From an uncultured Candidatus Saccharibacteria bacterium (GTDB lineage Bacteria > Patescibacteriota > Minisyncoccia > Phycocordibacterales > UBA12088), in assembly GCA_964411375.1 (NCBI GenBank), contig CAYPKR010000001.1, forward strand, positions 422,831-486,830: a stretch of DNA of 64,000 nt, in the 5' to 3' direction. Below are positions 15,569 through 49,083 of the stretch, in pieces. Made by a program: the position numbers and the translations under genes. Each line of letters begins with the position of its first letter. Position 1 is the stretch's first letter. The notes below the pieces were generated by a model that saw nothing but the letters and a program-made list of their open reading frames with translations, searched no databases and was not told where the DNA came from.

Positions 15569-17796
15569 GCACAGAAACCCGCACAATAGCGATCGTCTCC
15601 CCATACTTTCCGCCAGCCGCTGGCGGTCTTGAACGATATGCATCCGAGATTGCAAATCTTCTCCATACAGAACATGGATACCGCATCGTTGTCCTAACTT
15701 CAGGAGAAAAGGGAGGTGCGGATGTTCAAGAAGTAAGAGACGGCTATACGGTGTATCGACTCGGCTATTCGTTTAAAGTATCGAACACGCCGTTTTCATT
15801 CGCATGGTTTGGAAAGGTGCGACGAATTTTACAAAAAGAATCACCGGATGTTGTTCATATTCATACACCAGTTCCAGGAATCGGTGATATTGCCGCATTT
15901 TTTGCGCGAGTACCCGTTGTTGTGACCTATCACGCAAGTACCATGCGAAAAGGAAAGGGTAATAGTATCGTAAACATGATTATCGCGGGATACGAAAAGA
16001 TACTGCTTCCGTTTCTTCTTAGTAAGGCAGAAAAAATCATTTGCGCGTCCGACTTTATTCGCGACGACTTTCTCAGTGCATACAAAGAAAAAAGTATCAC
16101 TCTCACACCTGGTGTATATCCAGAGCATTTCACCCCAAACGCATTTTTGAAATCAAAATCACCAACTATTCTTTTTGTTGCTGGACGCATTGGCCGAACT
16201 GATACCTATAAAGGACTCGATACCCTTCTTGATGCGATGGCGCTCGTTTCAAAAAAGGTGCCAAGTGCACGGCTCGTTGTCGTTGGAGACGGCGACATGC
16301 TCTATGAATATGAAATGCGCGCAGAGCGACTCACCCCAGGCATTGTTTCCTTTACGGGTACGCTCCATGGAGAAATGTTGACGGCTGAATATCAAAAAGC
16401 ACATGTGCTTGCGCATCCATCGAGAAATGAAAGTTTCGGTATGGTTATTCTTGAAGCAATGGCGACCGAACTTCCCGTTGTCGCAACGAATGTCGGTGGA
16501 ATTCCAACGCTTCTTCAGGACGGAAAAACAGGTTTCCTCGTTCCTCCAGGTAATTCTGAAATGCTCGCCGAAAAATTGATCGAAGTACTTACTGATCATG
16601 AGCTTTCTGCCGCGCTTGGCAAAAACGGACGACTCCGTGCAATCGAAAACTATTCATGGAGTGGTCGCGCAACTACATATCACACTATATTTGAATCGTT
16701 CATTCGTCCGGAGATTGTGCATGCCGTCGGATATTATCCACCGCATATCGGTGGAATGGAGCGTGTCGCCGAAACCATCTCAAAACTTCTCGCAAAAGAT
16801 AATTGGCGAGTCCGTGTACTAACTTCGAACGGCTCACTTAGAGGTGAAGTGGAGCGGAGTGAAAACCTCGTCGTCAAAAGACTTGCGTCATTTGAGTTTG
16901 CACATACACCAATTGCACCAAGCCTTCCTTTTCACCTTTTTTCAATTTCAAAGAGAAGCATCATTCACCTACATCTCTCGCAGGCATTTTGGCCGGAATG
17001 GATTCTTCTTGTTTCAAAACTTCGGGGCATTCCGTACGTGCTACACCTGCATCTCGATGTAGCGCCGTCTGGCCCCCTTGGTCCACTCTTCCTCATCTAC
17101 AAAAAAATGATATGGGGTCCAGTAATCCGAAACGCATCGCTTGTTATCGCGTGTTCTGATGATCTTGCTCGTATGGCGGTCGAAGTATATGGAGCAAAGA
17201 AAACCAAACTTGAGATCATGCCAAACGCGGTAAATGATAATTTCTTTTCTGCTCGAGCCTATACGGTTCCTGCCGATCGTCTACGCTTGCTTTCAATTGG
17301 ACGACTTGCGCCACAGAAAAAAACAGAGCGTCTCGTCAAAATGATGCCGCTCCTCAAAATTCCCGCTGAATTAATTATTGCGGGAGACGGGGAAGATCGC
17401 GCTACGCTTGAGGCATTGGTTCGCGGCGAGAAAATTCCAAACGTCACATTTGTCGGTGAGAAAAATGATGCCGAGATGCGCGCTCTCCACGAGGCGGCAG
17501 ATGCATTTGTGATTGCGTCCGATAGGGAAGGACGTCCGCTCGCGGTTCTTGAAGCAATGGCGGCGGGGCTTCCCATTATTGCGTCTGATGTGGTAGGAAA
17601 TCATGAGCTCGTAGGGGGGGTAGGTATTCTTGTTTCTCCTCCAACCCCTGAAGCATTTGCGACCGCAATCAATACTCTTTGGCAAAATAAAGAGTCGTTG
17701 GAGACATTGTCGAAGCGAAGCGTAAAGCGGGCGAGTGAAGCAACGTGGGATTCGGTCATCCGACGTCTCGAAAATATATATACTACGCTCATATGA
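15565..17796 (+). CDS. Tandem double-GT4 glycosyltransferase.
   Basis: Two complete GT4 units, each ending in an EX7E-type donor motif region (EAMATELPVVATNVGG and EAMAAGLPIIASDVVG). The start overlaps the previous stop (ATGA). Confidence 0.75.
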   Translation: MSTETRTIAIVSPYFPPAAGGLERYASEIANLLHTEHGYRIVVLTSGEKGGADVQEVRDGYTVYRLGYSFKVSNTPFSFAWFGKVRRILQKESPDVVHIHTPVPGIGDIAAFFARVPVVVTYHASTMRKGKGNSIVNMIIAGYEKILLPFLLSKAEKIICASDFIRDDFLSAYKEKSITLTPGVYPEHFTPNAFLKSKSPTILFVAGRIGRTDTYKGLDTLLDAMALVSKKVPSARLVVVGDGDMLYEYEMRAERLTPGIVSFTGTLHGEMLTAEYQKAHVLAHPSRNESFGMVILEAMATELPVVATNVGGIPTLLQDGKTGFLVPPGNSEMLAEKLIEVLTDHELSAALGKNGRLRAIENYSWSGRATTYHTIFESFIRPEIVHAVGYYPPHIGGMERVAETISKLLAKDNWRVRVLTSNGSLRGEVERSENLVVKRLASFEFAHTPIAPSLPFHLFSISKRSIIHLHLSQAFWPEWILLVSKLRGIPYVLHLHLDVAPSGPLGPLFLIYKKMIWGPVIRNASLVIACSDDLARMAVEVYGAKKTKLEIMPNAVNDNFFSARAYTVPADRLRLLSIGRLAPQKKTERLVKMMPLLKIPAELIIAGDGEDRATLEALVRGEKIPNVTFVGEKNDAEMRALHEAADAFVIASDREGRPLAVLEAMAAGLPIIASDVVGNHELVGGVGILVSPPTPEAFATAINTLWQNKESLETLSKRSVKRASEATWDSVIRRLENIYTTLI

Positions 17797-20141: not shown

Positions 20142-22504
20142 AAATTCTTCGTGTAAATTCGGCTGGTTTTGAAGAAGGTGGCGCAGAAAGCGGCATTGTT
20201 GCTATTCAGCCTGTCCTCGAAAGACTTGGTCATACCGTACGCACTCTGGCGAGTGACGCGAGACCTGATATGCCGCATTTCAATGAATACACGTTTCGCG
20301 CTCCACATGGAATCTTTGCAAAAATAATGTACACGCTGAATTTTTCAGCATATTTTGCGCTTCGCAGTGCAATTCGTGATTACAATCCGGACGTCATTCA
20401 TCTCCACACCCTCGGTTCAGCTTCACCGTTAATCCTTTTTGCGCTTCGAAATGTTCCGACTATTGCTACCGTTCACGGACCAGAAGGGTACACCAGAGAT
20501 CTTTTGATGTGGTGTATGCCAAAATCCGATTTTATTAATGAAGAGTATGATCTCAAAAAACTCCGTCTCGCCGGCATTTTTCGATACATCTATTATCGAT
20601 ATATCAACTACCCGTTCTTCCGAATCGGATTTCGAAATATAACGCACTTTGTAACAATCAGTCGATATATTCAGGGTTTGATGAAGGCGCAAGGAGTTCC
20701 AAGTATTTATATCCCAAACGGCGTGAAGATGCTCCCATACTCGCCACTCGTTGAAGGAAATATTTCTCCCCGAGCGGTATATGCAGGACGATTGGAAAAA
20801 TTCAAAGGTGTTGAATATCTTCTTCGTGCGGTGCCGACGATCGTTGCTGCGATTCCAGAGTTTGAACTTACGGTGGCTGGAACCGGAAGAGATGCGGAAG
20901 AGCTGGAGTCGCTTGCAAAGGAACTTCACATTGAAAAGCACGTGCATTTTCTCGGGCATGTTGGCAAAGCAGAATTATTTGAAATGTACAAAAATGCATC
21001 GATTGTCGTTGTCCCATCAATCTGGCCAGAAAATGCATCAAGAAGCGGTATCGAATCTATGAGTCTCGGTCGCCCTATTATTGGGACGGATGTTGGAGGT
21101 ACCAGTGATTGGCTGATTGATGGTGAAACGGGTTACTTGATTCCACCAAAAGATTCAGGAGCAATTGCGGGTGCAATGATTCGCGCTTTTAGCGATACGA
21201 ATGCGCTGATTCGAATGAGTGCAAATGCTCGTAAAAAAGCAGAAGAGTATGCAATTGAACGCCATGCGGAGAAGATTGTTGAAGTATATGAAAGCGTCGT
21301 CGTAGATACTCATTCGGTTACAGCGTCTGAATCAAAGACAACAACGATCATGTATGTGACCGATCAACTTATGGATCAGGGATCGGCAGCGTATGTACAC
21401 GTGAGTGAAATTTGCACCAATATACAAGCGCTCGGACACAAAATTACGCTCTATGCGCCAACGATTGGAAAAAGAGAGGAAGTTGGATCATACGGAACCC
21501 AATTTATTTCTGTAACAGGAAAATATCTATCAGCGGTGTATCAACCCAAACTATTTATTCGACTTATTCGGGATATTCGAACAAATCGTCCTGATGTTCT
21601 CTATGTACGAAAAAGCCAACTTTTGTTTGTTCCAGCGATTATATCGCGCCTCTTTTCTATTCCACTTATTCTTGAAATAAACGGGCTGGTTGAGCAGGAT
21701 GCAAAGTATGTAAATCCCGACTTGATCGCACGAATATTCCTCCGAACCAAAATATTTGCACTCATTGAAATAATTAATGTACGCACTGCGCGACATTTTG
21801 TCGTGGTCGCGGAAGGTCTTAAGGCCTTTTTGACCGATCGGTATCACATTCCAGAGAATCGTATCTCACTCATTCAAAATGGGGTGAATACTGAATTGTT
21901 TGCTCCACGTGATCGAGTAGAAATGCGCCGTGAGCTTGGACTCCCGGAAGCATTCACCGTTGGATACGTCGGCAGTCTGCATCGCTGGCAGGGACTTCGA
22001 TGTATTGTTGCTGCTGCAAAAGTAGCGCTCGAACAAAAACCTGACATACATTTTTGTATCGCGGGCGGCGCAGGAGCTGATGGCGAATATCTCGAGAGTT
22101 TCATCAAAAAAAATGACCTTACAAAAAATGTTCACCTGATATCAGAAAATGATTACATCGCACTTTCTCACTTTAAGAGTGCTATCGATATTGGCCTGTG
22201 TTATCCCTTGCATATTCGTGCCGGTCTCACGTCACCAATGAAAATTTACGAATACCTTTCAAGTGGATGCCCAGTTATTGCATCAGATATTTCCGGTATG
22301 CGAGAAGAGTTTGGCGACATTATCATGTACGCTGAAGCAGAATCAGCAAAATCACTTGCGGAGAAAATTCTTGAGCTTGCAAATGATTCAGAGAAGCGCG
22401 AAACACTTGCGCTAAATGGTCGCTCCTTCATCGAAGCAGGACATAGTTGGAGAGTTGTTGCAGAAAAAATCCTCGCGATTATTGCTATCTGCGTTGATCT
22501 ATAG
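20138..22504 (+). CDS. Tandem double-GT4 glycosyltransferase.
   Basis: The N-terminal unit has MKILRVNSAGFEEGGAESGI and a GT4 core; the second unit has VGSLHRWQGL...KIYEYLSSGCPVIASDISG. The start overlaps the upstream stop. Confidence 0.7.
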   Translation: MKILRVNSAGFEEGGAESGIVAIQPVLERLGHTVRTLASDARPDMPHFNEYTFRAPHGIFAKIMYTLNFSAYFALRSAIRDYNPDVIHLHTLGSASPLILFALRNVPTIATVHGPEGYTRDLLMWCMPKSDFINEEYDLKKLRLAGIFRYIYYRYINYPFFRIGFRNITHFVTISRYIQGLMKAQGVPSIYIPNGVKMLPYSPLVEGNISPRAVYAGRLEKFKGVEYLLRAVPTIVAAIPEFELTVAGTGRDAEELESLAKELHIEKHVHFLGHVGKAELFEMYKNASIVVVPSIWPENASRSGIESMSLGRPIIGTDVGGTSDWLIDGETGYLIPPKDSGAIAGAMIRAFSDTNALIRMSANARKKAEEYAIERHAEKIVEVYESVVVDTHSVTASESKTTTIMYVTDQLMDQGSAAYVHVSEICTNIQALGHKITLYAPTIGKREEVGSYGTQFISVTGKYLSAVYQPKLFIRLIRDIRTNRPDVLYVRKSQLLFVPAIISRLFSIPLILEINGLVEQDAKYVNPDLIARIFLRTKIFALIEIINVRTARHFVVVAEGLKAFLTDRYHIPENRISLIQNGVNTELFAPRDRVEMRRELGLPEAFTVGYVGSLHRWQGLRCIVAAAKVALEQKPDIHFCIAGGAGADGEYLESFIKKNDLTKNVHLISENDYIALSHFKSAIDIGLCYPLHIRAGLTSPMKIYEYLSSGCPVIASDISGMREEFGDIIMYAEAESAKSLAEKILELANDSEKRETLALNGRSFIEAGHSWRVVAEKILAIIAICVDL

Positions 22505-37363: not shown

Positions 37364-38005
37364 ATGGAAATATATAAAGTAAGAAAAAATCAATATTTAT
37401 GGGGAGGTCTATTTTTTGGCATAATCCTGGTCGCTCTTAGCATCTCCTTGATTGGTGAAGGATCTATCGAAAGAACTAAATTCTTAGGGTTAATTGGATT
37501 TTGGGCCATAGCAATTATCCTGACTCTTGCCCCGTTTGGTTTTAAGTTAGAGGTAGGAGAAGATTACGTAAAAACATTTTTTTTGGGATTCTGTCTAAGA
37601 TACTTAAAGCGCGAAAATATTGAAGTCATTGAATATGGAAATTTGATGCGTGGCGGGGGATTGGGTTATGGAAAAGGCTTGAAAGGTTGGGAAAGAACTA
37701 AGAGAGGAAATCGAAAGTATTTTAGTATCGGGGAAGATGCTTATGGTAAGGGAGCAATGAAAGGCATTGCTCGTGCTCTTAGTAAAGACTCTCTACTTGA
37801 AAATAAGTTTAAGAACCAGGATCCCCATAAGGAAATTGATAGTAAAAAGAAAGTTCAGATAGCCATGATATGGACTGCTGGCTCGATAATAGGTTTCTTT
37901 CTTTTGCTTAATTATGCTCAAAATACAAAATTCGCCATTCTTATTCCGATTTCTATTCTCTCGTTAATTATTTCAATGGTGTATTTAATTAAGGCCAAGA
38001 GTTAA
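37364..38005 (+). CDS. Putative cognate immunity protein: four-TM membrane protein with a central bPH-like soluble domain.
   Basis: Starts 1 nt after the toxin stop. TM helices GLFFGIILVALSISLIG, LIGFWAIAIILTLAPFGF, two C-terminal helices, and a central Gly/Lys-rich domain. Position and topology fit immunity to a membrane-targeting toxin. Confidence 0.45.
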   Translation: MEIYKVRKNQYLWGGLFFGIILVALSISLIGEGSIERTKFLGLIGFWAIAIILTLAPFGFKLEVGEDYVKTFFLGFCLRYLKRENIEVIEYGNLMRGGGLGYGKGLKGWERTKRGNRKYFSIGEDAYGKGAMKGIARALSKDSLLENKFKNQDPHKEIDSKKKVQIAMIWTAGSIIGFFLLLNYAQNTKFAILIPISILSLIISMVYLIKAKS

Positions 38006-39777
38006 TTTGTAATCACTTTACTAAAAGTTCTGCTATTTCTCGCTAGCAATTGCTCATAATTGTCAGGAGTAATTGGTTCACTAAAATCGGGCTTCTTTCT
38101 TCTGCGTCCTAGCAGTTCCCATTGAGGAACTTTTCCCTCGATGCGGAACTCTATAGTCTTGTTTTCTTCAGTATTGCCATTTTGTGTAATCGGCAGAGCT
38201 CCATAAATAGAGAACTGATCAAGTTTGAAAACTATTTTGGTTACGTGCTCCAACAGAAATTTTCTTTTGGAGTCAAACTCTTTGGCATTTATGAACTGCA
38301 CTCGTGCATTTTCGCAGTACTCTTTGATGCTCGAATTGACGACATCAGTCTTGTACAGCAGTGGTATTCGCTTTGCCAATTCAATGTACTCCGTCTTCAG
38401 AGCACTTGTTTCCTCGTCGTATTTTTGGCTCTTTGAGACATACACCTCTTTCTCAAGATTGCCCATCGTATATATCTCCACCAAGCGTTTCTTTTTGTGA
38501 GTAATCAGTTTTATTTTTTGATCAATATACCTGCGCTGTCGTTCTAATTTCTTGTGTTCTTTATCCGCATCAATTTTTAAGAAATCCATACACTTCTTGA
38601 GCTTGGACGGCTCGAGCATGAAATCGAAGATTGCCTTCCAGACATAGTATTCAAGAATATCGGCTTTGACCTCCTTGTTGTGGCATTTCTTCAATGGATT
38701 ATTTACAGAGTGCATTCTTTGTCGATATCTCCAGTTACATTTATACGCACGCTTATGAATAACCCTGGGTACTTTTGTACGTTTGTCGTGATAGTGAGTC
38801 CGGTATGCAAAGAAGCTACTTCCGCATTCGCCACAGCGTACTAGCGAGGAAAGCAACTGAATCACCCTGGGATTCCTATACTTCTTCCTGTTCCATTGAA
38901 TACGCTCTTGTACCGTATCGAAAATCTTTTGCGGTATGATTCTCGGTACCTCGATACCTACCCATTCAGTCCGGTCTCGCTTTAACATTTTCTTCGTCGT
39001 GCTCTGTATCCCATGTATTGGATTCGCGTATTCACGCACCACTTTCATGGTATTGAAATAGCGAATGCCGGTGTACATCTCATTTCGAGTCATGCATTTG
39101 ATCAGGGAAGTGCGCCAGATATTTTTCCTCCTCTTTGTTGGCGCACCCATTTCCTCGAGTCGCCTTGTTATCTGATTTACCCCAACCTGTCCCTTCGCAT
39201 ATGTTTCAAATACATACCGTACTACTTTGGCTTCCTCCTCATTGATCGTGTAGTACGGATCAGACGTGGGGGTACGTTTGTGATAGTCATAGCCGTATAT
39301 GTTATTGCCACATCCGAGCAGTTTTCCTTGTTGCAGTCGATGCTGTCGTGCTCGCACTGTGCGCTCAATGATCTTTGCTCTCTCTAGTTCTGCTACCGCT
39401 CCAAGTACGGTGACCGTGAACTTGTTTTCAGGATTGTGGATGTAGTCCTTGCCGTTGATGATGATTTGTTTTTTGTACTTTAGGATCTCCGCAATGATGA
39501 TGGTCTGGTACGTTACTTCCCGGGCAATCCGGTCGGTGTTGAGAAAGTAGATCACATCGAATACATCCGTTTTCAGGTCTTTCCGTAATTCATCCATTGC
39601 CGGACGATCCAATCGGGCACCGGTATATCCGTCGTCCACGTACTCCTTCACGAGCAGATTGCCGTCCCCGGCAATCTGTCGTTTCAGCTCAACTATCTGG
39701 CTCTCGATCGTTTTCTCGTTCCGCTGAAGTGTCGAACTGACTCGGGCATAGTAACTTGCGCGTTTCATATACCCCAT
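38002..39777 (-). CDS. Large serine recombinase (integrase).
   Basis: N-terminal resolvase catalytic domain (YARVSSTLQ with Ser nucleophile, DGYTGARLDRP), recombinase domain, Cys-rich zinc ribbon (CGECGSSF...C) and C-terminal coiled coil. About 590 aa. Confidence 0.8.
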   Translation of the reverse strand: MGYMKRASYYARVSSTLQRNEKTIESQIVELKRQIAGDGNLLVKEYVDDGYTGARLDRPAMDELRKDLKTDVFDVIYFLNTDRIAREVTYQTIIIAEILKYKKQIIINGKDYIHNPENKFTVTVLGAVAELERAKIIERTVRARQHRLQQGKLLGCGNNIYGYDYHKRTPTSDPYYTINEEEAKVVRYVFETYAKGQVGVNQITRRLEEMGAPTKRRKNIWRTSLIKCMTRNEMYTGIRYFNTMKVVREYANPIHGIQSTTKKMLKRDRTEWVGIEVPRIIPQKIFDTVQERIQWNRKKYRNPRVIQLLSSLVRCGECGSSFFAYRTHYHDKRTKVPRVIHKRAYKCNWRYRQRMHSVNNPLKKCHNKEVKADILEYYVWKAIFDFMLEPSKLKKCMDFLKIDADKEHKKLERQRRYIDQKIKLITHKKKRLVEIYTMGNLEKEVYVSKSQKYDEETSALKTEYIELAKRIPLLYKTDVVNSSIKEYCENARVQFINAKEFDSKRKFLLEHVTKIVFKLDQFSIYGALPITQNGNTEENKTIEFRIEGKVPQWELLGRRRKKPDFSEPITPDNYEQLLARNSRTFSKVITN

Positions 39778-39821
39778 GGATGACGCTGATCCATGGGGGA
39801 GTCAAGGATTTTCTGGTATAT

Positions 39822-40241
39822 CTATTTACCTCTCTCGTTGTACTTTGGCTGATGAGCAAGAATTTGCTCTGCTTCCCATCTTAGAGCTTCCTCTGCATTG
39901 TCACAAAGATGGTAACCAAAATGAGTAGCTTCTGGCCAGTAATCATCTCGTAGGTGGCAAAGTAGACGGTCACGCATTCCACCGTTTCCGGTTCCTACAC
40001 CAATATAGACTGGCTGCAATTGATTTTGTGCTGTCAAAAAACCACAAAAATAGACCCCAATTGCCCTTGAATTCCAGTTACCAATAATTTCGTCGTTGTA
40101 AAGGTAATGCCCTTGATAGTTGTAGATCATAGTTTTTTGTTTCCCCTCGTAATAATTCTGGGTTCGAATAATTGAACCTTCAGCCGCTGTGTGAGAGTAG
40201 GCAGTGGGAGAGGAGTTACCTCTCGGGAGAGATTTTCGCAC
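39822..40241 (-). CDS. Hypothetical protein, possibly a GIY-YIG-like nuclease fold.
   Basis: GVYFCGF...PVYIGVGTG...RL..H...E arrangement loosely resembling the GIY / YIG / Arg / Glu motif order. Weak. Confidence 0.25.
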   Translation of the reverse strand: MRKSLPRGNSSPTAYSHTAAEGSIIRTQNYYEGKQKTMIYNYQGHYLYNDEIIGNWNSRAIGVYFCGFLTAQNQLQPVYIGVGTGNGGMRDRLLCHLRDDYWPEATHFGYHLCDNAEEALRWEAEQILAHQPKYNERGK

Positions 40242-40327
40242 CCGCGCTCTTCACCGTCAATCTTTACGGACTTCTGTTAGTATTGCATGTTATGGACTGG
40301 ATATGCCCTATATGATATACTTCAAGC

Positions 40328-40990
40328 ATGCATCCCATTCAAGAGAACCTGCTTCTTTTATCGAAAACCGAAAATCTTGCGAAATTAAGCTTGAGAGAGA
40401 TGGCTAAGCGCATTGCGATGCCTAAAGAATCTCCTCAAAAAATTAAGCATCATCTCCTCCAGCTTCAGAAGAAGGGATTTTTGAGTATCGACAGGGCGAA
40501 GGGGATGATGAGCAGAACAACCCTTGAGCCAGATTGGGCAAAAGGACTTTTGAAGAAAACGTCTCGGTTGTTTTCAATTCCCGTTATTGGTACCGCTAAT
40601 TGTGGCCCAGCAACAGTTTTTGCTGAACAAAATTTCCAAGGTTTTCTTCGGGCTTCGAGTAAACTCGTCGGTAGATCAAGACCGAATGGGTTGTATGCGT
40701 TAAAAGCTGACGGATCATCGATGAATAGGGCGGAAATAAACGGTAAAAAAATTGAAGATGGAGATTATGTAATAATCGATAGTAAAAACAAAAGCGTTAG
40801 TACCGGAGACGTAGTACTCGCCATTATTGACAATAAAGCAACTGTAAAAAGATTTATTGACGATCGTCTAAATAAGCAGATTGTATTGAAAGCTGACTCA
40901 TCATTTGACTATGCTCCTATCTATTTGCATCCGAGTGATGATTTCAGTATTAGCGGGAAAATCGTAGGTGTAATTAAAAGATCATCATAA
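40328..40990 (+). CDS. LexA/phage CI-like repressor: N-terminal wHTH plus C-terminal S24 self-cleaving peptidase domain.
   Basis: The N-terminus is HTH-like (SLREMAKRIAMPKESPQKIKHHLLQLQKKGFL). The C-terminal S24 domain has LKADGSSMNRAEI (Ser nucleophile) and ATVKRF (Lys general base). Confidence 0.65.
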   Translation: MHPIQENLLLLSKTENLAKLSLREMAKRIAMPKESPQKIKHHLLQLQKKGFLSIDRAKGMMSRTTLEPDWAKGLLKKTSRLFSIPVIGTANCGPATVFAEQNFQGFLRASSKLVGRSRPNGLYALKADGSSMNRAEINGKKIEDGDYVIIDSKNKSVSTGDVVLAIIDNKATVKRFIDDRLNKQIVLKADSSFDYAPIYLHPSDDFSISGKIVGVIKRSS

Positions 40991-40994
40991 TTCT

Positions 40995-41228
40995 ATGACT
41001 AAGAAAAATTTTCATAGTGTGCCCTGGGGAGAAGATTGGGCGGTTAAAAAAGAAGGAATTAATAAGCCGGTTTCTATTCATCGAACGCAGGCCACCGCTG
41101 AAGACAAAACCCATACTCTTGCAAAAAAGAATGAAGTTGAGGCTGTGTACCACAACAAACACGGGCAAATTAAAGACAAAGACAGTTTTGGAAACGACCC
41201 TCATCCGCCAATCGACCGTAAACATTAG
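40995..41228 (+). CDS. DUF2188-family small protein.
   Basis: FHSVPWGEDWAVKKEG...VSIHRTQATAEDKTHTLAKKNEVEAVYHNKHGQIKDKDSFGNDPHPP closely follows the DUF2188 consensus (HVVP..GGWAVK...DSYGNDPNPP). Confidence 0.55.
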   Translation: MTKKNFHSVPWGEDWAVKKEGINKPVSIHRTQATAEDKTHTLAKKNEVEAVYHNKHGQIKDKDSFGNDPHPPIDRKH

Positions 41229-41280
41229 TTTTGTTGGTAACCCCTCTTCGCAAATTCTTGGGATCTGCTAGGGTACTGAC

Positions 41281-41505
41281 TGATAGCCTTCTTTAGGCTA
41301 TCATTGTAGCTACAATTAAATATTGCCCCGCAAGGGGCTAAGACCTAAACCAATGACTTCGGTCACTGGCATGGTCCCAAATCGTAGTGCATAGAGAACC
41401 CGTCATTCAGGGCGTGCACTACGTTATCAGGGGAAACTCTGGTAGGGCCGCAAGGCCTCCTGGTGGCGGGCTTTGTGTTTTCCACCAGACACATTACCAA
41501 TGTAA
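41281..41505 (+). ncRNA. Candidate structured non-coding RNA of unassigned class.
   Basis: A dense series of hairpins: 8-bp stem GATAGCCT/AGGCTATC; GCCCC-GCAA-GGGGC (GNRA loop); TGAC-TTCG-GTCA (UUCG loop); GGCC-GCAA-GGCC (GNRA loop); 7-bp CTGGTGG/CCACCAG; and a 9-bp long-range pairing CGTAGTGCA/TGCACTACG. Stable GNRA/UUCG tetraloops occur only on the + strand reading. No ORF is supported here. Confidence 0.3.
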
Positions 41506-41514
41506 TTCGTCGGT

Positions 41515-42036
41515 ATGGAAAATACTGAAAAGGTACAGAGACCAATTTATAAAAAACCGTGGTTCTGGTTGATCGCAACTTTCCTCGTACTTTTTATTGT
41601 TAGTTTGTCAGGTCAGCATCCTTCAAATAATGCAGTTTCAAAAAGTATCCAAAGACCGCCAACTCTAAGTGACCAAATTACTATCGCATGTGACACATTT
41701 GCGACTGGTACCCCGGTAACACTTAGTTACAAAGAACTTGAGAAGAGTCCCGACAATTTTTCAAACCAGTATGCTCGCTTCACTGGACAAGTACTGCAGA
41801 TTCAAGAATTAGATAATCTTGGATATATGCGGCTGGCAATAGTAAAGAATGAGTTCGGTGATTGGGATTTATCACACGTACTATACGTTCAGTACACAGG
41901 GAATACAGAAGCAGTGGAAGATGATGTCGTTACTGTAACTGGGGTGATGGAGGGAAGTCATACCTATACGTCACAAGCAAACTATCAGATCACCGTACCT
42001 TCAATGTATGCGTGCTCAGTTAAAAAGATAAGTTAA
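41515..42036 (+). CDS. Membrane-anchored extracytoplasmic hypothetical protein (DUF4352-like beta-sandwich?).
   Basis: N-terminal TM WFWLIATFLVLFIVSL, then a beta-rich domain with one Cys pair. No firm family. Confidence 0.3.
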   Translation: MENTEKVQRPIYKKPWFWLIATFLVLFIVSLSGQHPSNNAVSKSIQRPPTLSDQITIACDTFATGTPVTLSYKELEKSPDNFSNQYARFTGQVLQIQELDNLGYMRLAIVKNEFGDWDLSHVLYVQYTGNTEAVEDDVVTVTGVMEGSHTYTSQANYQITVPSMYACSVKKIS

Positions 42037-42476
42037 GCATCCTCGTTAAATCCCAAACTCCTATTCCTATGCTTCTGCTTCTCGCCCCTTTCATTCCGAA
42101 GCATTTCCGCAGTCTGCTTACTCACTCTAATTTCTCCATCTTCACTTCGAAATGAATCCATGGAATTGTTACTTTCGGTTTCAACAATCTGAACCTTGTT
42201 TCGATATCGATTCGAATTGTGAGTCAGAAAAAACTTTGCCGCACCCAAGTCACCATTTCGTACCTTGTTAACTAGAGTTACTTCTGCCAACTCGATAAGA
42301 TTTTCTCTGCCACTATTTTGCGCTTTCAGCACTTTCTGTTTGAATCGATAGTTGCTATGCATCCATCGATAGATAGTGGCGCGAGAAACTCCTACTTTCT
42401 TACAGGCGTGGTTAATGAACGGCGTTGTCGCTAGAATCTCTAGAAACTTCTTTCGCTCATCGCTACTGCGAGCCAT
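42033..42476 (-). CDS. HTH-domain protein resembling phage terminase small subunit or a transposase HTH.
   Basis: KKFLEILATTPFINHACKKVGVSRATIYRWM is a homeodomain-like HTH typical of TerS N-termini. The start overlaps the upstream ParB-methylase gene. Confidence 0.35.
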   Translation of the reverse strand: MARSSDERKKFLEILATTPFINHACKKVGVSRATIYRWMHSNYRFKQKVLKAQNSGRENLIELAEVTLVNKVRNGDLGAAKFFLTHNSNRYRNKVQIVETESNNSMDSFRSEDGEIRVSKQTAEMLRNERGEKQKHRNRSLGFNEDA

Positions 42477-43806
42477 GGATCTTAACGCGTTTCTTGCCCG
42501 TAAACTTCTCCCATCGATTCAGAATGACTTCGGCATAGACAGGGGACTTCTCCATGACGAAGCATCGACGCTTAAGAGTAATAGAAGCGATCAGAGTGGA
42601 TCCACTCCCGCCAAATGGTTCAAGAACAATTTGGTTTCGAGTAGTAAGTACCTTAATGTAGGGAATTAAAATCTCTACAGGTTTCACCCCGAAGATGATA
42701 CCTTGTCCGCTCGTCTTCCGATTTGCCGCATTGAATTCGATAAAATCAGTCGGAGAATACTTCTTGCCACTCTCGTATCCTTCCCATTGCGGTTTTCCCG
42801 ATATGGCAAACAGAGCGGTAAGATATTCATTTCCAAGCAATCCTTCGTCTTCCGTATTTACTCCAAGCTTCCCACTGGTTCCCAGTAGTGCAATGTCATG
42901 CTTAGAGAAGAATTTGTATTTACTCGGATGGTTTTGATTTCGATTCGGTACATGCCAAACAAGCATGTTGCGGACTTTCCAGTTTTTCTCCATCTCGTTC
43001 CAGACTTCCCGAATATTTTTCCAGTTCTCGTAGCAGATGATTGAAAAATCTACTTTGGCTACTGTCGCAACATTACCCATCCAGAGTTCGGTAAAATTTT
43101 CTGGTAATACCTCGGTCTCGATATATCGTCGATCCTGTTTTGCGCCGAATCCTTTCGACTTACTCCCGGGCTTCAGATATTCAAGGCGATACGGCGGATC
43201 AGTCATGACCATGTCTATTTTTTCGGAACCTGCGAGTGCTTGAGCATCTGTCTCTATAGTGCTGTCGCCACACATCAACCGAGATCCATCGAGATCATAT
43301 AGGTCTCCCTTCTGTACGGTAATTTCGGTAATATCGAGTTTCTCCAGTTCCTTTTCTATATCGAAGTCCGACTCCTCCAGTTCGTCATCAAAGACTTCAT
43401 CTATCTCTTCTGAATCGAATCCAATATCGGTGAGAAAAGACTCATCGAATTCTGCGAGTAGATCAAAGTCCCACTCGCCGACTGCTTTGTTCAGTCGCAA
43501 ACATAAATCTTTTTCTTTTTCCAAATCACTAATCTCAACAAATATTACCGGCACCTCGGTATATCCCAGATCCTTCAATACCTCGAAGCGGAGATTGCCT
43601 CCAATGATTATCCCTTCTCGACCCGCCGCTTTGTTCACCAGCAGGGGATCTTTCACTCCATGAAGCTCAATACTTTTTCGGACTGGAGTTTTCGTTTCTT
43701 CTGAAATAGCTCGAGGATTGTACTCTGCATGGCGCAGGGAATCAGTAGGTACGTACTCGACATGCATCCTATACGCCTCATTTGTTGTATGAGAATCACT
43801 AACCAT
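42463..43806 (-). CDS. ParB-like nuclease domain fused to an N6-adenine/N4-cytosine DNA methyltransferase (phage-type).
   Basis: The N-terminal ParB/Srx-like segment (IIIGGNLRFEVLKDLGY), an acidic linker, then the methylase core: CGDSTIETD...IDMVMTDPPY (motif IV DPPY) and VLEPFGGSGSTLIAS (motif I). Confidence 0.75.
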   Translation of the reverse strand: MVSDSHTTNEAYRMHVEYVPTDSLRHAEYNPRAISEETKTPVRKSIELHGVKDPLLVNKAAGREGIIIGGNLRFEVLKDLGYTEVPVIFVEISDLEKEKDLCLRLNKAVGEWDFDLLAEFDESFLTDIGFDSEEIDEVFDDELEESDFDIEKELEKLDITEITVQKGDLYDLDGSRLMCGDSTIETDAQALAGSEKIDMVMTDPPYRLEYLKPGSKSKGFGAKQDRRYIETEVLPENFTELWMGNVATVAKVDFSIICYENWKNIREVWNEMEKNWKVRNMLVWHVPNRNQNHPSKYKFFSKHDIALLGTSGKLGVNTEDEGLLGNEYLTALFAISGKPQWEGYESGKKYSPTDFIEFNAANRKTSGQGIIFGVKPVEILIPYIKVLTTRNQIVLEPFGGSGSTLIASITLKRRCFVMEKSPVYAEVILNRWEKFTGKKRVKIHGSQ

Positions 43807-44045
43807 ATGTATTTTTTAGGAATTAATCGACTCCGGAGTCGGAGAGTAGAGGAACATTCCTCAACTCATACATATAAGTATGCGCGCGAAAACCTATTTT
43901 TAATTGGGAGCGCTTCATTTTTCACTTTGTCTGGAATGCTCCTAAATAGGGGATTATACGGAATGAAATTTTGCACGAATTTTTTGCCACGAAAATATTA
44001 CTCTGACAATATATTCAAATTTCTGGGAGATGTAGACTAAATTGC

Positions 44046-44384
44046 ATGAAACTGAACATGAGATTCAACTGGCCGCTCGGTGAAAATTCTGCATACGTAA
44101 GCGTGGGAATGCCTAATATCGACGATCTTAAAAAGGAGTTCAAAATTGGCGTGATTCCCAAAGCACACCCAAAGGAAATTCAGTGGCAAGACCTTGGCTG
44201 GATCCCAGGAAATGAAATCGATGCAAAAATGGAATTCCGAGTAGATAGGGGCGACAAGGTTGTATTGCAATATGGCGATCTCGGTACGAACAAAGCGGAA
44301 GGGGGAATAACAATAGATTCGGAAGAAGAGTGGCCTATGGAGGCGCAGGGAGCCGCGGTCACTGACATGTCTTGGAATCTTTGA
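44046..44384 (+). CDS. Small hypothetical protein.
   Basis: ORF only; no motifs. Located at the distal edge of the phage-like element. Confidence 0.2.
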   Translation: MKLNMRFNWPLGENSAYVSVGMPNIDDLKKEFKIGVIPKAHPKEIQWQDLGWIPGNEIDAKMEFRVDRGDKVVLQYGDLGTNKAEGGITIDSEEEWPMEAQGAAVTDMSWNL

Positions 44385-44589
44385 TTCTCGTACTGCGTTC
44401 CGGTGTCTCATCTGTCGCATTTTGCTGGTACCATATGTATGACAAGGTTCTTTGAAAAAGTCGCGCATCTACATATATATTGTGTTGGTTTCGATACCGG
44501 GGGAATGGGCGAAAATATTTGAAAACCCAGTTGGACTACTAACTGGATTCAATCCTGGCTTGTACGATTTAACGTACTGTAATGCCTAG

Positions 44590-44703
44590 AATCTCGGGCA
44601 ACCTCCAGAAGGTGTTGGCCGTGACGATCTGAATGCCAGATATTACAATCCATCCACAGGGGAATTCTTGAGTCAAGATCCACTTCCGGCGTATTTTGCG
44701 AGC
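44590..44703 (+). pseudogene. Orphan remnant of an RHS core C-terminal region. It is truncated, with no toxin domain.
   Basis: Translation NLGQPPEGVGRDDLNARYYNPSTGEFLSQDPLPAYFASCRFAHRTY* matches the big toxin's ...LNARYYNGTQGQFLSQDPVF... core motif. It is bounded by an in-frame stop 3 codons upstream and has no plausible start. Confidence 0.55.
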
Positions 44704-44822
44704 TGCCGTTTTGCCCATCGTACATATTGAATGAATCATCCATGCGTGCTACTATCCAATTACTTAGAATCTCTAAGTAAATTATTCAACTATTCGTCAA
44801 GTATCGTTGTAAATCATTTTTT

Positions 44823-46352
44823 ATGCAGGCATTTGCAAAATATATTACTCCGTCGAATGTAGTCGGGGCGGCGGCGGTCGTCGCGGTCTTGGCGTCAGCC
44901 GTTGTATTCGTACTGTCGATCAAAAAACCGGCGTCGGCCTACACGGAAGCGTCGTCCGGAAGCTTGGTCGAAGAAGTCGATACGACCGGATCGGTGAAGG
45001 CGGCGGAAGCGATCGATCTTTCGTTTGAGCGTTCGGGGCAGATCGGCAGCGTGAACGCAAAAGTCGGAAGCATGGTCGCGCAAGGTCAAGTGCTCGCGAG
45101 CCTTTCTGCGGGAGACGTCAGTGCTTCGCTCGAGCAGGCGCGCGCGGCGCTTCAGGTCGAGCAGGCTCGGCTTGATGCGGTAAAAGCGGGAACGCGTCCG
45201 GAAGATATCGCGGTGTCGCAAGTTGCGGTGTCAGCCGCGCAGGCATCCGTGTCGCAAGCGATGCAAGACGCATACATCAAAGCAGACGACGCGATCCGCA
45301 ACAAAGTCGACCAATTCTTCGACAGTCCGCGATCCGTTTCGCCTCGCTTGAATATCAATATCGGCGATTCGCAGGCGGCGCTCGACATCGAAAGCGGACG
45401 CCCCGCGATGGAGGTTCTCCTCAAGTCGTGGCAGAGCGATTCGGGCATTTCAGCAAGCGGCGCGGCGTCGGCGCCGAACAGCGCGTCGATCGCATCGGCA
45501 AAAAATAATATCGCGGCAGTCAGCGCCTATCTCGACAAGGTCGCGTATGGGCTCTCGAAGCTCACTTCTTCCGCACAACTCTCGGCATCCACGATTCAAA
45601 CGTATCAGGCGAATATCGCAACTGCTCGAAACGCCGTCTCGGGATCGCTCGCGGCCTTGAATGCGGCGAATAACACCCTCCTTACCGTGCAGTCGCAATT
45701 GGCATTGAAGCAGGCAGGCGCGACGCCGCAGGACATCGAAGCGCAGACGGCGGAAGTCGCGCGCGCCGCAGCGAATGTGCATGCGGCAGAAGCGGAAACG
45801 GCGAAGTCGGTGATTCGCGCGCCGATCGGCGGCGTCATCACTCGGAATGACGCGCACGCGGGAGCGACAGCCGCACCGGGAGTCGCCCTCATTTCGATGA
45901 ACAGCACGGCGCACTTCGCGGTCGAAGCGTATGTGTCCGAAGCAGATTTCGCGAAGATCGCGATCGGGGACGAAGTGTCCGTCTACCTCGATGCATACCA
46001 AAACGCAGCGCCGTTCGCTGCGCACGTAACTGCGATCGATCCGGCGGCAACAGTGGTAAACGGTGTCGCCTCGTACAAAGTAACCGCGCAGTTCGATTCG
46101 GACGATCAGCAGATAAAAGCGGGACTCACGGCAAATCTCCATATCATCGCGGCGAAGAAAGATTCGGCGCTCAAGGTGCCGACGAGCGCCATTATCAGGA
46201 AAGGCAATGCGCTCTTCGTGCTGAAGCAAAACGGGAAGAGCGACGATCTGGTTCCTGTTACGATCGGCCTCGCAAGCTCCGACGGATTTACGGAAATCAT
46301 AAGCGGCATATCGGCGGGAGACTCGGTCAGGAGTTTCGGCGCGGCTGAATAA
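44823..46352 (+). CDS. HlyD-family membrane fusion / periplasmic adaptor protein (EmrA-like).
   Basis: N-terminal TM, a long Ala/Gln-rich coiled coil (LEQARAALQVEQARLDAVKAG...), and a C-terminal beta-barrel (IRAPIGGVITRND). GC-rich codon usage distinct from the flanking genes. Confidence 0.65.
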   Translation: MQAFAKYITPSNVVGAAAVVAVLASAVVFVLSIKKPASAYTEASSGSLVEEVDTTGSVKAAEAIDLSFERSGQIGSVNAKVGSMVAQGQVLASLSAGDVSASLEQARAALQVEQARLDAVKAGTRPEDIAVSQVAVSAAQASVSQAMQDAYIKADDAIRNKVDQFFDSPRSVSPRLNINIGDSQAALDIESGRPAMEVLLKSWQSDSGISASGAASAPNSASIASAKNNIAAVSAYLDKVAYGLSKLTSSAQLSASTIQTYQANIATARNAVSGSLAALNAANNTLLTVQSQLALKQAGATPQDIEAQTAEVARAAANVHAAEAETAKSVIRAPIGGVITRNDAHAGATAAPGVALISMNSTAHFAVEAYVSEADFAKIAIGDEVSVYLDAYQNAAPFAAHVTAIDPAATVVNGVASYKVTAQFDSDDQQIKAGLTANLHIIAAKKDSALKVPTSAIIRKGNALFVLKQNGKSDDLVPVTIGLASSDGFTEIISGISAGDSVRSFGAAE

Positions 46353-46371
46353 TCGAATATCATATATCTAT

Positions 46372-47010
46372 ATGGCCACTCATCATTCAAAATCGCGGAC
46401 GCCGAAACAGGAATGGATGCGCGCAGCAATACTGTCGCTTCTTATCTTGATCGTAGCTGGCGGCTTCATCTATTGGAGAATGTATCAGGGACGGATCTCG
46501 ATCGACACTGCGTCGATCGAAGCGCCTGAAATCGATCTCGCGCCGTCGACTGGCGACATTCTCGAAGAAGTGTACGTGCGGGAAGGCGACACGGTGCCGG
46601 CCAATATGGTTGTCGCGCGGGTCGGCAATGAGCTTTTGAAGAGCAAGGTTGCGGGACTCATCGTCTCGGTGCCGAAAAATGTGGGCGCGGATGTGCGAAG
46701 CGGCGAGACGGTGGTCGCGATGATCGATCCGTCGGCGCTTCGCGTGGTCGGCCGCATCGACGAAGACAAAGGGCTTAAAAATGTCACGGTAGGGGACACG
46801 GTCGTCTTTACGGTCGACGCATTCGGCGGCAAAAAATACTCGGCGGTCGTCGATGAAGTCGCGCCCGCCTCGCGCAATTCGGGCGTCGTCTTCAATATTT
46901 CTGACAAGCGGGAAGTGAAGCAGTTCGATATCAAGGCGCGATTCGATACGAACGCGTATCCCGAACTCAAGAACGGCATGTCGGCGCGCATGTACATCCG
47001 TTCGAATTAA
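46372..47010 (+). CDS. Short HlyD-like adaptor protein (lipoyl/beta-barrel domains only, no coiled coil).
   Basis: TM ILSLLILIVAGGFIYW, then lipoyl-like GDILEEVYVREGDTV and a beta-barrel VVGRIDEDKGLKNVTVGDTVVFTVDAF. Confidence 0.5.
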   Translation: MATHHSKSRTPKQEWMRAAILSLLILIVAGGFIYWRMYQGRISIDTASIEAPEIDLAPSTGDILEEVYVREGDTVPANMVVARVGNELLKSKVAGLIVSVPKNVGADVRSGETVVAMIDPSALRVVGRIDEDKGLKNVTVGDTVVFTVDAFGGKKYSAVVDEVAPASRNSGVVFNISDKREVKQFDIKARFDTNAYPELKNGMSARMYIRSN

Positions 47011-47076
47011 AAAGCGTACATACGTTGTCGCAGGCTTTGTATCTCCATCTTTGTAATCCGAACTACACCAAAAATT

Positions 47077-48555
47077 ATGAACGGATCCGGCAAATGGATA
47101 GTCCTCGCAACCGTCATGGTCGGCACCTTTTTGGGCCGGCTCGATCAGACCGTGGTGAATCTGGGGCTTCCGAAAATCATCAATGACTTCGGCATTACCG
47201 TTTCAGCTGCAGGCTGGATCGCGACCGCATACATTTTAGCGAACGCGGTTTTTGTTCCCGTGTGGGGCAAACTCGGCGACACCATCGGCCGCAAAAAAGT
47301 GTACGTGATCGGGTTCCTCATGTTCATCGTCGGCTCTGTCTTAGCCGGTCTTTCGTGGAATCTTCCGTCAATGATCGTCTTTCGCATCATCCAAGCGATC
47401 GCGGGATCGGCCGATTATCCAACAGCTATGGCGATCCTTGCGGTGACGTTTACAGAACCGCGCGAACGCTCACAGGCGCTCGGCATCTGGTCGGCGTCCT
47501 TTGCCGCGGCTGCGGTCTTTGGGCCATTGGTGGGAGGCCCACTCATCGACAACTTTGGATGGCGGGCGGTGTTTCTCGTCAACTTGCCGGTCGGGGTCAT
47601 CGGGCTTCTCATGGCGCTCGCATTCATCAATGAGTCGGTGTCTGAAAAGAAAACCACCGTATTCGATTGGTGGGGAGCGGCAACGCTCGGCGCTTCGCTC
47701 TCGGCGCTCGTCCTCGTCCTTGATCGCGGCCTTGATTGGGGATGGCTATCGCTTTCCAGCATGCTCTGCTATGCCGCGAGCCTTCTCTTTCTATGGATAT
47801 TCATACAGATCGAAACGCGCCATCCGGAACCGATCGTCGATCTCAAATTTTTCAAAAATTCCGTCTTCGTCAACGCCCTCGTCAACAATTTCATCATGTT
47901 CATGGGGCTCATGGGATCGATCTTCCTCTTGCCGATCTTCGCGCAAACCTTTCTCGGCTACGACGCAACCGAAACAGGCTACCTCTTCATTCCAATGGCG
48001 TTCGGTCTTCTCTTTACGGCGCCCTTCGGCGGCATGCTGACCGGCAAAGTGCAGACCAGGTACGTTATTTTTTGGAGCACCTTCCTCGCCGGATGCGCGA
48101 TGTATCTTTTTTCGTATATCGATCCGCGCTCGAGCGCGCTTGATCTCATGATCCCGCTCGCGCTCATGGCAGGCGCAATGGGATTCGGCATGGCGGGCCG
48201 CACATCGGTCGTGGCCGCGTCGGTCGAGGAGCATGAAATCGGCACCGCCTCGGCGGTTTTGGCGCTCGCGCGCAATATTGCGGGCGCGTTCGGGATTGCG
48301 CTTTTCGGCACGATCTTGAATAATGCAATCGAAAGCAATGTGCTGTCGATCGCTGGGCAGAGCATCATCCGGAGCAGCGATCCTACAATCATCCAGCAGG
48401 GAATCGCGCTCATCGAGCTCAAAGCGCAGGTTTCCGCCTATGGGCAAGTGTACGCGGCGGCGGCGATCCTCATTATTCTCGGATCCTTCACGGCGCTTCT
48501 CATGAAAATCCCGAAAGCCCGCGAGCTCGAAAAGCGCGAAATGATCGTTGAATAG
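47077..48555 (+). CDS. MFS drug:H+ antiporter, DHA2 (EmrB/QacA) family, 14 TM.
   Basis: N-terminus LATVMVGTFLGRLDQTVVNLGLPKI, then GKLGDTIGRKKV (MFS motif A-like). 14 hydrophobic segments over a ~490 aa length. Confidence 0.75.
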   Translation: MNGSGKWIVLATVMVGTFLGRLDQTVVNLGLPKIINDFGITVSAAGWIATAYILANAVFVPVWGKLGDTIGRKKVYVIGFLMFIVGSVLAGLSWNLPSMIVFRIIQAIAGSADYPTAMAILAVTFTEPRERSQALGIWSASFAAAAVFGPLVGGPLIDNFGWRAVFLVNLPVGVIGLLMALAFINESVSEKKTTVFDWWGAATLGASLSALVLVLDRGLDWGWLSLSSMLCYAASLLFLWIFIQIETRHPEPIVDLKFFKNSVFVNALVNNFIMFMGLMGSIFLLPIFAQTFLGYDATETGYLFIPMAFGLLFTAPFGGMLTGKVQTRYVIFWSTFLAGCAMYLFSYIDPRSSALDLMIPLALMAGAMGFGMAGRTSVVAASVEEHEIGTASAVLALARNIAGAFGIALFGTILNNAIESNVLSIAGQSIIRSSDPTIIQQGIALIELKAQVSAYGQVYAAAAILIILGSFTALLMKIPKARELEKREMIVE

Positions 48556-48561
48556 CAATTC

Positions 48562-49026
48562 ATGCAAAATCGTCCTGATCGAAAAAAAATAGATGCGGCG
48601 GATACGAAGAATCTCTATGCGGATTTGACTTCGCTTTTTTTTGAGACGAGGCAGATCATCCGCTCGCAAGTGCCGGAAAAAGGAAAAAAGGATCCGAACG
48701 AATGGATGCGTCTTGAGCTTTTGACTTTCCTCAAGCAGAAAGAAGCGCCGACGATGCAGGAAATCGCGCGGCATCTCCATGTCGAAGCGCCGTCGGCGAC
48801 GTCTTTGGTCGCCACGCTCGACCGCGCGGGACTCATCGAACGCCGGGCGGGCAAAGCGGACAAGCGCGTGACTTGCATTTATTTGACTGGCAAAGGAGAG
48901 GAGAAGCTTCGGAAATATGCGGTTCATTCGAGCGCGCTCATGGAGCGCGTTTTCAAAAAGCTCCGGCGGGAAGAAATCGCAGTACTCAAGCGTATTTTGA
49001 AGCGTGTTATTGAAACCAATCAATAA
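48562..49026 (+). CDS. MarR-family transcriptional regulator.
   Basis: Winged HTH: LTFLKQKEAPTMQEIARHLHVEAPSATSLVATLDRAGLIERRAGKADKRVTCIYLTGKG. Confidence 0.7.
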   Translation: MQNRPDRKKIDAADTKNLYADLTSLFFETRQIIRSQVPEKGKKDPNEWMRLELLTFLKQKEAPTMQEIARHLHVEAPSATSLVATLDRAGLIERRAGKADKRVTCIYLTGKGEEKLRKYAVHSSALMERVFKKLRREEIAVLKRILKRVIETNQ

Positions 49027-49083
49027 TTTAGATGCATTGTTATGGGGATCCTTTCCCATCCGTATGCTACAATCTGATTTCAC

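Follow-up and report, generated by a model that had tools for sequence, protein, structure and literature searches.

Large serine recombinases (LSRs) insert several prophages and islands into protein-coding genes, among them SPbeta in spsM, the skin element, and A118 in comK, where insertion disrupts the gene and excision restores it. Phage 21 and the element e14 use a tyrosine integrase to enter icd and bring a substitute 3′ end with the same function, and the phage-inducible chromosomal islands combine an integrase, a repressor and a terminase small subunit (TerS) and need a helper phage for packaging. Here we describe a related arrangement in a 64,000-nucleotide stretch of contig CAYPKR010000001.1 from an uncultured Candidatus Saccharibacteria bacterium (this whole stretch is the window referred to throughout), where an LSR gene lies between an RHS toxin gene with its predicted immunity gene and a second, fragmentary RHS tip. 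We consider it likely that window positions ~36,570 to 44,634 are one 8,061-bp integrative element, of a family widespread in Patescibacteria, that swaps the tips of RHS proteins by means of its LSR. The observations behind this reading are the anatomy of the window, the recurrence of the arrangement, its conserved junction and the insertion topology at a related locus, L108.

As in SPbeta, skin and A118, the recombinase is a three-domain LSR and the attachment (att) site lies inside an open reading frame (ORF), but the element in the window is proposed to supply an in-frame alternative 3′ end that keeps the gene functional with a new toxin. Phage 21 and e14 likewise supply a replacement for the part of the gene distal to the crossover, although here the substitute end would change the effector and come with an immunity gene. 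Some relatives of the element (class II below), with two tandem LSR paralogues and integration at the 3′ end of a gene, are reminiscent of ccrAB in the staphylococcal cassette chromosome mec, while the window has a single LSR and a target and cargo that are unrelated. A size of 8–13 kb, an integrase, a CI/LexA-type repressor, TerS (with the large subunit, TerL, in some) and no capsid genes are shared with the phage-inducible chromosomal islands, a likeness of gene content; a helper phage or a replication module is not known for the element.

The entry of new tips into RHS genes has so far been explained only by C-terminal displacement, a model in which a new tip module replaces the 3′ end of rhs via homologous recombination; circular intermediates were proposed as a hypothesis, and no integrase was then known to accompany Rhs (Jackson et al. 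2009, PMC2935791). Integrase-like genes associated with Rhs have been reported from bee-gut bacteria, with unknown role (Steele et al. 2017, PMC5727410). The locus in the window resembles C-terminal displacement in that a unit of tip, toxin and immunity gene would replace the main 3′ end, leaving the old tip as a promoterless orphan that can erode. It differs in that an LSR accompanies the incoming tip and in that the junction is fixed and carries a conserved non-RHS arm. We found no published description of an LSR-borne RHS tip swap in the literature on Rhs and polymorphic toxins, integrases, or bacteria of the candidate phyla radiation. We place the arrangement with two known kinds, serine-integrase islands and RHS tip displacement, of which it would be a new form.

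In the scheme that we favour, the LSR would join attP to a target in the 3′ portion of the host RHS gene, which in the subfamily of the window would be the L-N-A-R-Y-Y codons. The arm of the element that becomes fused to the host gene would encode an in-frame replacement tip, made of the pre-toxin plug/cleavage region and a C-terminal toxin, and the cognate immunity gene would follow it. Integration would re-arm the host RHS shell with the toxin of the element, the antidote also coming from the element, and the native tip would be displaced to the far end as a promoterless orphan, in the window since reduced by erosion to 17 conserved codons. An RHS without a toxin would now remain after excision, so that the host would depend on the element for a functional effector. 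We infer that the LSR catalysed the event, and likewise that the element continues to be mobile and has a route of transfer. The features that bear directly on this scheme are as follows, in window coordinates.

29791–36573, + strand: host RHS shell with a signal-like N-terminus, SpvB, FG-GAP and a YD shell, ending ...EGPGLSYLN (ORF list; Pfam on an identical Logan gene); it would be the B arm side of attL.
36548–36600, + strand: candidate attL (B|P′), from direct repeats spaced 8061, pairwise alignment and comparison of class I junctions.
36574–37362, + strand: putative element-borne replacement RHS tip, ARYY...NSYSYANGNPIVNKDPSGR and then a ~215-aa glycine-rich C-terminal toxin domain (translation).
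37322–38005, + strand: predicted membrane immunity protein, 227 aa (ORF list; homologues beside LSRs elsewhere).
38002–39777, − strand: LSR, 591 aa (Pfam Resolvase, Recombinase and Zn_ribbon_recom).
44605–44634, + strand: candidate P arm of attR, CCAGAAGGTGTTGGCCGTGACGATCTGAAT, ~30 bp of conserved non-RHS sequence that aligns with the arms of L108, L105, L005, L004, L065, L026, L198 and L200.
44635–44730, + strand: what would be left, after erosion, of the native RHS tip that was displaced (B′), ARYYNPSTGEFLSQDPL; the frame then runs through 14 unrelated codons to a stop.

The full RHS protein has 2523 aa (29791–37362, + strand; ORF list), and Pfam finds SpvB, FG-GAP and TEN_YD-shell domains on the 2497/2523-aa protein. 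As a reference for RHS/YD-repeat polymorphic toxins we used the core-end motif RYYxPxxGRFxSxDP...NxYxYxxNNPxxxxDPxG, followed by a variable toxin and a neighbouring immunity gene; the protein in the window has the core end LNARYYNGTQGQFLSQDP...NSYSYANGNPIVNKDPSGR, a divergent C-terminus and an adjacent membrane ORF. Its C-terminal toxin domain has no Pfam match and belongs to no known family. The LSR carries all three expected domains (PF00239, PF07508 and PF13408), each above its cut-off, and matches integrases in PHROG (E=3.7e-77); its YARVSS motif, which contains S14, is nearly invariant across a 30-sequence alignment. No recognisable recombination directionality factor accompanies the LSR in the window.

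At the far end, the stop-to-stop frame at 44590–44730 translates as NLGQPPEGVGRDDLNARYYNPSTGEFLSQDPLPAYFASCRFAHRTY*, with the conserved part ...PPEGVGRDDLNARYYNPSTGEFLSQDPL standing before the 14 unrelated codons. An earlier note on this DNA had described this fragment as a terminus of the RHS core with neither a start nor a toxin domain, which is what we find; its length is 46 codons and not 38, and there is no usable start codon. Following the DP motif are 15 codons, as opposed to 204–265 in relatives. We considered and rejected the fragment as an RHS orphan cassette, since it keeps 17 conserved tip codons (44635–44685) and lacks both a toxin domain and an immunity gene, making it a remnant. 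Aligned as DNA, the two core ends (36566–36621 and 44627–44682) are 72–82% identical at a spacing of 8061 nt, and a 10-bp core, ATCTGAATGC, is common to the candidate attL (36566–36575) and attR (44627–44636). This RHS tip repeat is the only meaningful repeat pair linked to the ends. At the ends first proposed (37990–38010 and 44380–44600), no convincing direct or inverted repeats were found.

The left boundary most likely lies at ~36.57 kb, with the toxin tip and immunity gene (36574–38005) as cargo of the element. The earlier note had instead placed the left end at 38002, and the element between a host toxin-immunity pair and an orphan. All the coordinates of that block check, including the 4-nt overlap of the convergent immunity and LSR stops (38002–38005), and a mobile-element gene set does surround the LSR. 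The position as drawn is not supported, given the overlapping stops and the L-N-A-R-Y-Y junction, and a left end at 38002 is probably wrong, as no att site fits at overlapping stops. In two relatives the stops of the LSR and immunity genes overlap by 24 nt (L198) or are 16 nt apart (L108). Because these stops overlap or nearly touch, the toxin and immunity genes must be on the LSR side of the junction.

The junction beyond the element is conserved. In nine independent loci (the window, L004, L005, L026, L065, L105, L108, L198 and L200) the distal tip starts at the L-N-A-R-Y-Y codons and is preceded by a non-RHS arm of ~30 bp, in which GTGTYG stands exactly 17 nt before the Ala codon (GCN) in every case. 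The arm reads CCAGAAGGTGTTGGCCGTGACGATCTGAAT in the window, GGGGGAGGGTGTCGGCTCTGACAATCTGAAT in L198 and TACGCAGGTGTTGGCCATGCCTTGCTCAAC in L105, and upstream of it the sequences of the nine loci are unrelated. Among 200 fetched loci the GTGTYG arm pattern is present solely at such junctions; the main RHS genes are without it and have ordinary core in its place (...YIGQxYDxxxxLSY). The window has one occurrence of the pattern GTGTYG-N17-GCNMGNTAYTAY, with ~0.01 expected by chance. RACGGGRC is found at +13..+20 in the P′ arms of three loci (the window, L108 and L198) and is missing from most displaced tips. By eye, nothing convincing was seen of the 5-bp offset between attB and attP motifs that is typical of serine integrases.

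Where the junction falls varies with the recombinase. The junctions just described (class I) accompany single-LSR loci whose LSRs are 52–68% identical to that of the window, and in class II (L012, L013, L030, L006, L011 and L014) the arm is found 14 codons further upstream and the LSRs are 45–50% identical and mostly in tandem pairs. The junction position thus tracks the LSR subfamily, as would be expected if the recombinase sets the site. Two tandem LSR paralogues, in the manner of ccrAB, occur in many relatives (L011–L019, L035 and L038), compared with one LSR in the window. In a third group (L087, L074, L055, L032 and L040), an RHS fragment of 140–240 core codons plus tip lies 80–160 nt upstream of the LSR start, and some of these fragments begin at a conserved TYDDLNRL motif. 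Such fragments suggest that the crossover lies deeper within the RHS core for other LSR subfamilies.

Conservative insertion predicts an attL made of host core and element tip and an attR made of element arm and host tip. Locus L108 allows this to be compared, as two further ordinary orphan tips (orphan 2 and orphan 3) lie beyond its element-adjacent tip and could stand in for an empty site. To the left of the Ala codon, these orphans match the main gene at 67–79% and the arm at ~37% across 90 nt, and orphan 3, the closer match, reaches 90–100% to the main gene in the final 50 nt. To the right, across 150 nt, the match to the distal tip is 89% for orphan 2 and 59% for orphan 3, the latter low partly from its truncation after ~100 nt, as against ~44% for both to the tip of the main gene. 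The switch point falls within ~10 nt of the Ala codon. This is the pattern that conservative insertion into an intact RHS gene would be predicted to leave. A chimeric protein query joining the L108 core to its displaced tip returned distant RHS proteins only, and the RHS of L108 itself was not among them.

A second RHS tip beyond the element was found in the window, L005, L012, L014, L049, L006, L029, L108 and L198. The distal tip of L012 ends at the edge of the locus, and the tips of L029 were seen by tblastn only. Where the frame is complete (L005, L006, L014, L049, L108 and L198), the motif is followed by a full toxin of 204–252 aa, and in L108 and L198, the loci with gene calls, an immunity gene follows the distal toxin. 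Because distal tips elsewhere keep complete toxins, the fragment in the window is an eroded form of a regular feature of the family. The suggestion that a pre-existing orphan array had been split gives way to a fragment read as the remnant of a displaced native tip. Beginning ~100 nt past the eroded tip is a 4.2-kb GC-rich block (~44850–49050; GC 0.52–0.64 vs ~0.44 elsewhere) that encodes two HlyD-like adaptors, a major facilitator superfamily transporter and MarR. Gain of this block may have deleted the displaced toxin and immunity gene.

The association between this LSR family and RHS genes recurs across dozens of related loci, bearing out the proposal that a mobile element is tied to RHS toxin diversification. 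We found 818 homologues of the LSR at E≤1e-20, collected 20 loci from genomes, 80 from metagenomes and several exact-protein contexts, and searched them by tblastn with the proteins of the window. LSR homologues (42–68% identity) adjoin an RHS 3′ end in loci of many Patescibacteria metagenome-assembled genomes (MAGs) and metagenomes, with a repeated order of ParB-methylase, TerS-like helix-turn-helix (HTH) protein, sometimes LOOT RNA, LSR, and then convergent immunity gene, toxin and the 3′ end of a full RHS gene. An RHS core end lies within 4.5 kb in 12 of the 19 non-redundant loci that have at least 3.5 kb beyond the LSR, and the remaining loci include some where an RHS end closely precedes the LSR. 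All but one of the detected RHS ends are on the strand opposite the LSR. In L105 the order is conserved with LSR, toxin and immunity proteins 61%, 48% and 39% identical to those of the window, and homologues of the immunity protein also adjoin LSRs in L019 (44%), L038 and L004.

Clustering of ORFs across 17 elements identified a backbone of LSR (17/17), ParB-methylase (14/17) and TerS-like HTH protein (14/17), with S24 repressors in six and otherwise variable cargo, such as a cyclic oligonucleotide-based antiphage signalling system (CBASS; L104, L198 and L200), a pair of AAA and S8 peptidase genes (L108) and a D12 methylase (L105). The mobile-element character rests on this variable cargo and on the nearest RHS homologue, L112, being free of the element. 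The CBASS cargo consists of a SMODS cyclase with patatin or SAVED effectors and E2/ThiF/JAB, adjoins the S24 repressor, and is found at 1015–5270 in L104, 4461–6672 in L198 and 2030–6565 in L200.

The other features of the element in the window are listed here.

39822–40241, − strand: ORF of 102–139 aa, with a weak PHROG 'endonuclease' match only.
40328–40990, + strand: S24/LexA-CI-like repressor (Pfam Peptidase_S24 1.6e-19 and a weak LexA DNA-binding match; PHROG transcriptional repressor).
40995–41228, + strand: DUF2188 protein (Pfam E=8.4e-14).
41342–41458, + strand (opposite the LSR): LOOT RNA, Rfam RF03000, a full-length covariance-model match.
41515–42036, + strand: protein of 173 aa that has a membrane segment at its N-terminus (PHROG, a family of unknown function at E=9e-22 and weak matches to superinfection exclusion).
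42033–42476, − strand: TerS-like HTH protein (Pfam HTH_Tnp_1_2; PHROG).
42463–43806, − strand: fusion of ParB_N and an N6/N4 DNA methyltransferase (Pfam ParB_N and N6_N4_Mtase).
44046–44384, + strand: 112-aa ORF, the last before the end of the element (ORF list), with no family match in Pfam or PHROG.

Pfam upheld the earlier identification of the large serine recombinase, the S24 repressor, DUF2188 and the ParB-methylase, and the TerS-like protein was likewise supported by eight PHROG 'terminase small subunit' families and one 'terminase' family (best E 2e-8). The ORF at 39822–40241 had been called GIY-YIG-like, a label we would drop: there is no Pfam match even at E=10 and no PDB sequence match, the weak PHROG 'endonuclease' match having an E of 3.6e-4. 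We found no structural (capsid, portal, tail) or lysis genes among the ORFs at 38–44.6 kb with Pfam and PHROG, and the element does not qualify as a prophage. The window has no tRNA genes and hence no tRNA target, and its gene content (glycosyltransferases, few biosynthetic genes and the RHS protein with SpvB/FG-GAP domains) is in keeping with a genome of the Patescibacteria (candidate phyla radiation), as are the MAGs from which the homologues come.

ParB-methylase/TerS(-TerL) modules 56–61% identical are found in IMG/VR viral contigs, and larger relatives of the element retain a TerL-like ORF. The LSR family itself is nearly absent from IMG/VR, where a scan with the LSR alignment gave one match of 26% identity, and phage GenBank records contained LSRs only at 28% identity or below. 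The description of the block as a small phage therefore holds for the ParB-methylase/TerS-like module, but not for the element as a whole, which has no structural genes and an LSR family nearly absent from the viral contigs. The remaining genes (LSR, S24, DUF2188, LOOT, TerS-like and ParB-methylase) would then be a phage-derived backbone for maintenance and transfer. The viral-type ParB-methylase/TerS/TerL module, the lack of structural genes and the near-absence of the LSR from IMG/VR suggest a satellite-like or degraded-prophage lifestyle.

What had been noted as a structured RNA is a full-length LOOT RNA (RF03000), scoring 70.6 bits against a gathering score of 46.4 and covering model positions 1–121. 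LOOT was found in the window and in 14 of the 22 related loci scanned, among them L005 (9717–9841), L012 (8127–8247), L014 (9748–9862), L044 (9738–9855) and L108 (9723–9855); its strand is opposite to that of the LSR in 13 of the 14 and in the window. In five loci it precedes the LSR start by 139–165 nt in divergent orientation, and it is absent from eight IMG/VR contigs that have the homologous ParB-methylase/TerS/TerL module. LOOT looks like a signature of these LSR/RHS elements. The LSR and RHS proteins are present identically in Logan assemblies of SRR12487045, and the short-read (Logan, De Bruijn-graph) contigs of the source sample break inside LOOT at 41379–41408, as do the Logan contigs of four L108-population samples (~9788). 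Since contigs end inside it, the LOOT core is likely a multi-copy repeat in these communities.

Several points weigh against the reading of an LSR-driven tip swap. The main tip in the window (LNARYY...DPSG) shares its type with the tip of the element-free L112 (84% aa identity, as against 98% for the core before it), and the last ~310 aa of the shell are about 97% identical to L112. The DNA of the two declines gradually in similarity toward the toxin, with no sharp breakpoint at LNARYY, and the tip stretch in the window may stem from the element, but gene conversion, or a crossover lying further downstream, may equally account for it. The tip copies of L005 are ~93% identical over ~195 nt, which also fits homologous recombination, and given this and the resemblance of the window tip to that of L112, homologous exchange also acts on RHS tips. 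L011 and L004 carry an arm, tip and toxin that are unjoined to an RHS core, either as copies of attP that have not recombined or perhaps through decay of the locus. Of the dyad symmetry that an LSR attP should show, only L005 has a clear instance (GTGTCG...34 nt...CGACAC), and the window a weak one. Neither an excised circle nor a true empty site in a close relative was found, nor was a near-identical element in two different RHS genes. Additionally, the assembly may mis-join two element copies at LOOT, and the joining of the two halves of the element relies on the NCBI assembly and on the synteny of the family. The scheme is supported by comparative anatomy, not by evidence of movement.

Some of these loci deserve a further description. 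L112, the nearest RHS homologue, is without the LSR element and lies in the dcw cell-division cluster; it was rejected as a true empty site on the basis of this different chromosomal locus. It contains an eroded orphan RHS core fragment after the immunity gene (17505–17860) with no LSR, and from this, tip displacement free of a recombinase also occurs in the lineage. In L011 (13339–15200), an LSR pair is followed by a toxin and a tip with arm-like upstream codons, and directly after by a tRNA cluster; this may be an intact attP in the chromosome. For L004, from a MAG labelled Alphaproteobacteria, and L003, we note a 61%-identical LSR in a genome with a GC of ~0.6. About 8.6 kb downstream of that LSR is a class I cassette of arm, tip, toxin and immunity gene (20095–21485; GC 0.49) of window-type families, which could reflect cross-phylum spread, an unrecombined attP or a binning error.

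It is possible, if unlikely, that the toxin and immunity gene of the window are native and that the LSR element inserted downstream of them, into an existing orphan array, or captured a stray tip. LSR-free orphan arrays do exist, as seen in the eroded fragment after the L112 immunity gene and in orphans 2 and 3 of L108, and the main tip in the window is of the type found in the element-free L112. Such an insertion would have to fit an att site between LSR and immunity stops that overlap, leaving no room, and no remnant of a B arm (...GLSY) is seen between these two genes. The far junction, moreover, falls at the same codon in nine loci, while ordinary orphans keep 40–80 upstream core codons, and in L108 it is the main gene that holds the missing left half of the target.

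The direct tip repeats flanking the LSR could also be read as a resident, non-mobile toxin switch, in which the LSR deletes the segment between them and the shell takes the next stored toxin. Excision of this sort by an LSR during development has precedents in the skin and fdxN elements, complete stored toxins lie downstream in L005, L014, L108 and L198, and the LSR family is nearly absent from IMG/VR. We nevertheless think this quite improbable in view of the variable cargo of mobile type (CBASS, methylases, S24 repressor and the TerS/TerL module), the patchy presence among RHS homologues, and the non-RHS sequence of the arm that precedes the distal tip; the tip stored in the window is also dead, leaving nothing to switch to. 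RecA-dependent displacement of the C-terminus, with circular or transduced tip/toxin/immunity DNA recombining by homology at the RHS core end and the LSR as a passenger serving another att site, has in its favour an established model for rhs loci (PMC2935791) and tip copies that are 72–93% similar at the DNA level. It predicts variable left ends with RHS sequence and not a conserved non-RHS arm of 30 bp, and we regard it as very unlikely given an arm at a fixed 17 nt from the Ala codon in nine loci and a junction position that co-varies with the LSR subfamily.

Insertion of an LSR element into the RHS gene, with the swap of its tip, is then the reading that we carry forward. A broader version of it, which we judge to be about evenly balanced, is that small, phage-derived LSR elements spanning the phylum use the conserved 3′ coding sequence of RHS genes as their attachment site, each bringing an in-frame toxin tip without a promoter and an immunity gene, and hijack the host shell for delivery, probably acting as an addiction module, that repeated insertions build the orphan arrays, and that LOOT is a small RNA belonging to the family, usually ~140–165 nt upstream of the recombinase gene and divergent from it. 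Displacement of RHS C-termini would then be site-specific and driven by an integrase. Little is known of mobile elements in these organisms of the candidate phyla radiation, and a layout that recurs in many of them suggests a site-specific route for toxin swapping. If true, it would provide the missing vehicle and enzyme for the acquisition of RHS tips, explain the origin of some orphan toxins, and give an example of a mobile element that borrows a 7-kb delivery shell from its host instead of carrying one. It would also place the orphan LOOT RNA of candidate phyla radiation bacteria in a genomic context with testable functions, and offer a set of serine integrases with a natural, conserved target site in protein-coding sequence. 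Finally, the CBASS cargo in relatives would link interbacterial toxins, defence islands and phage-derived packaging genes.

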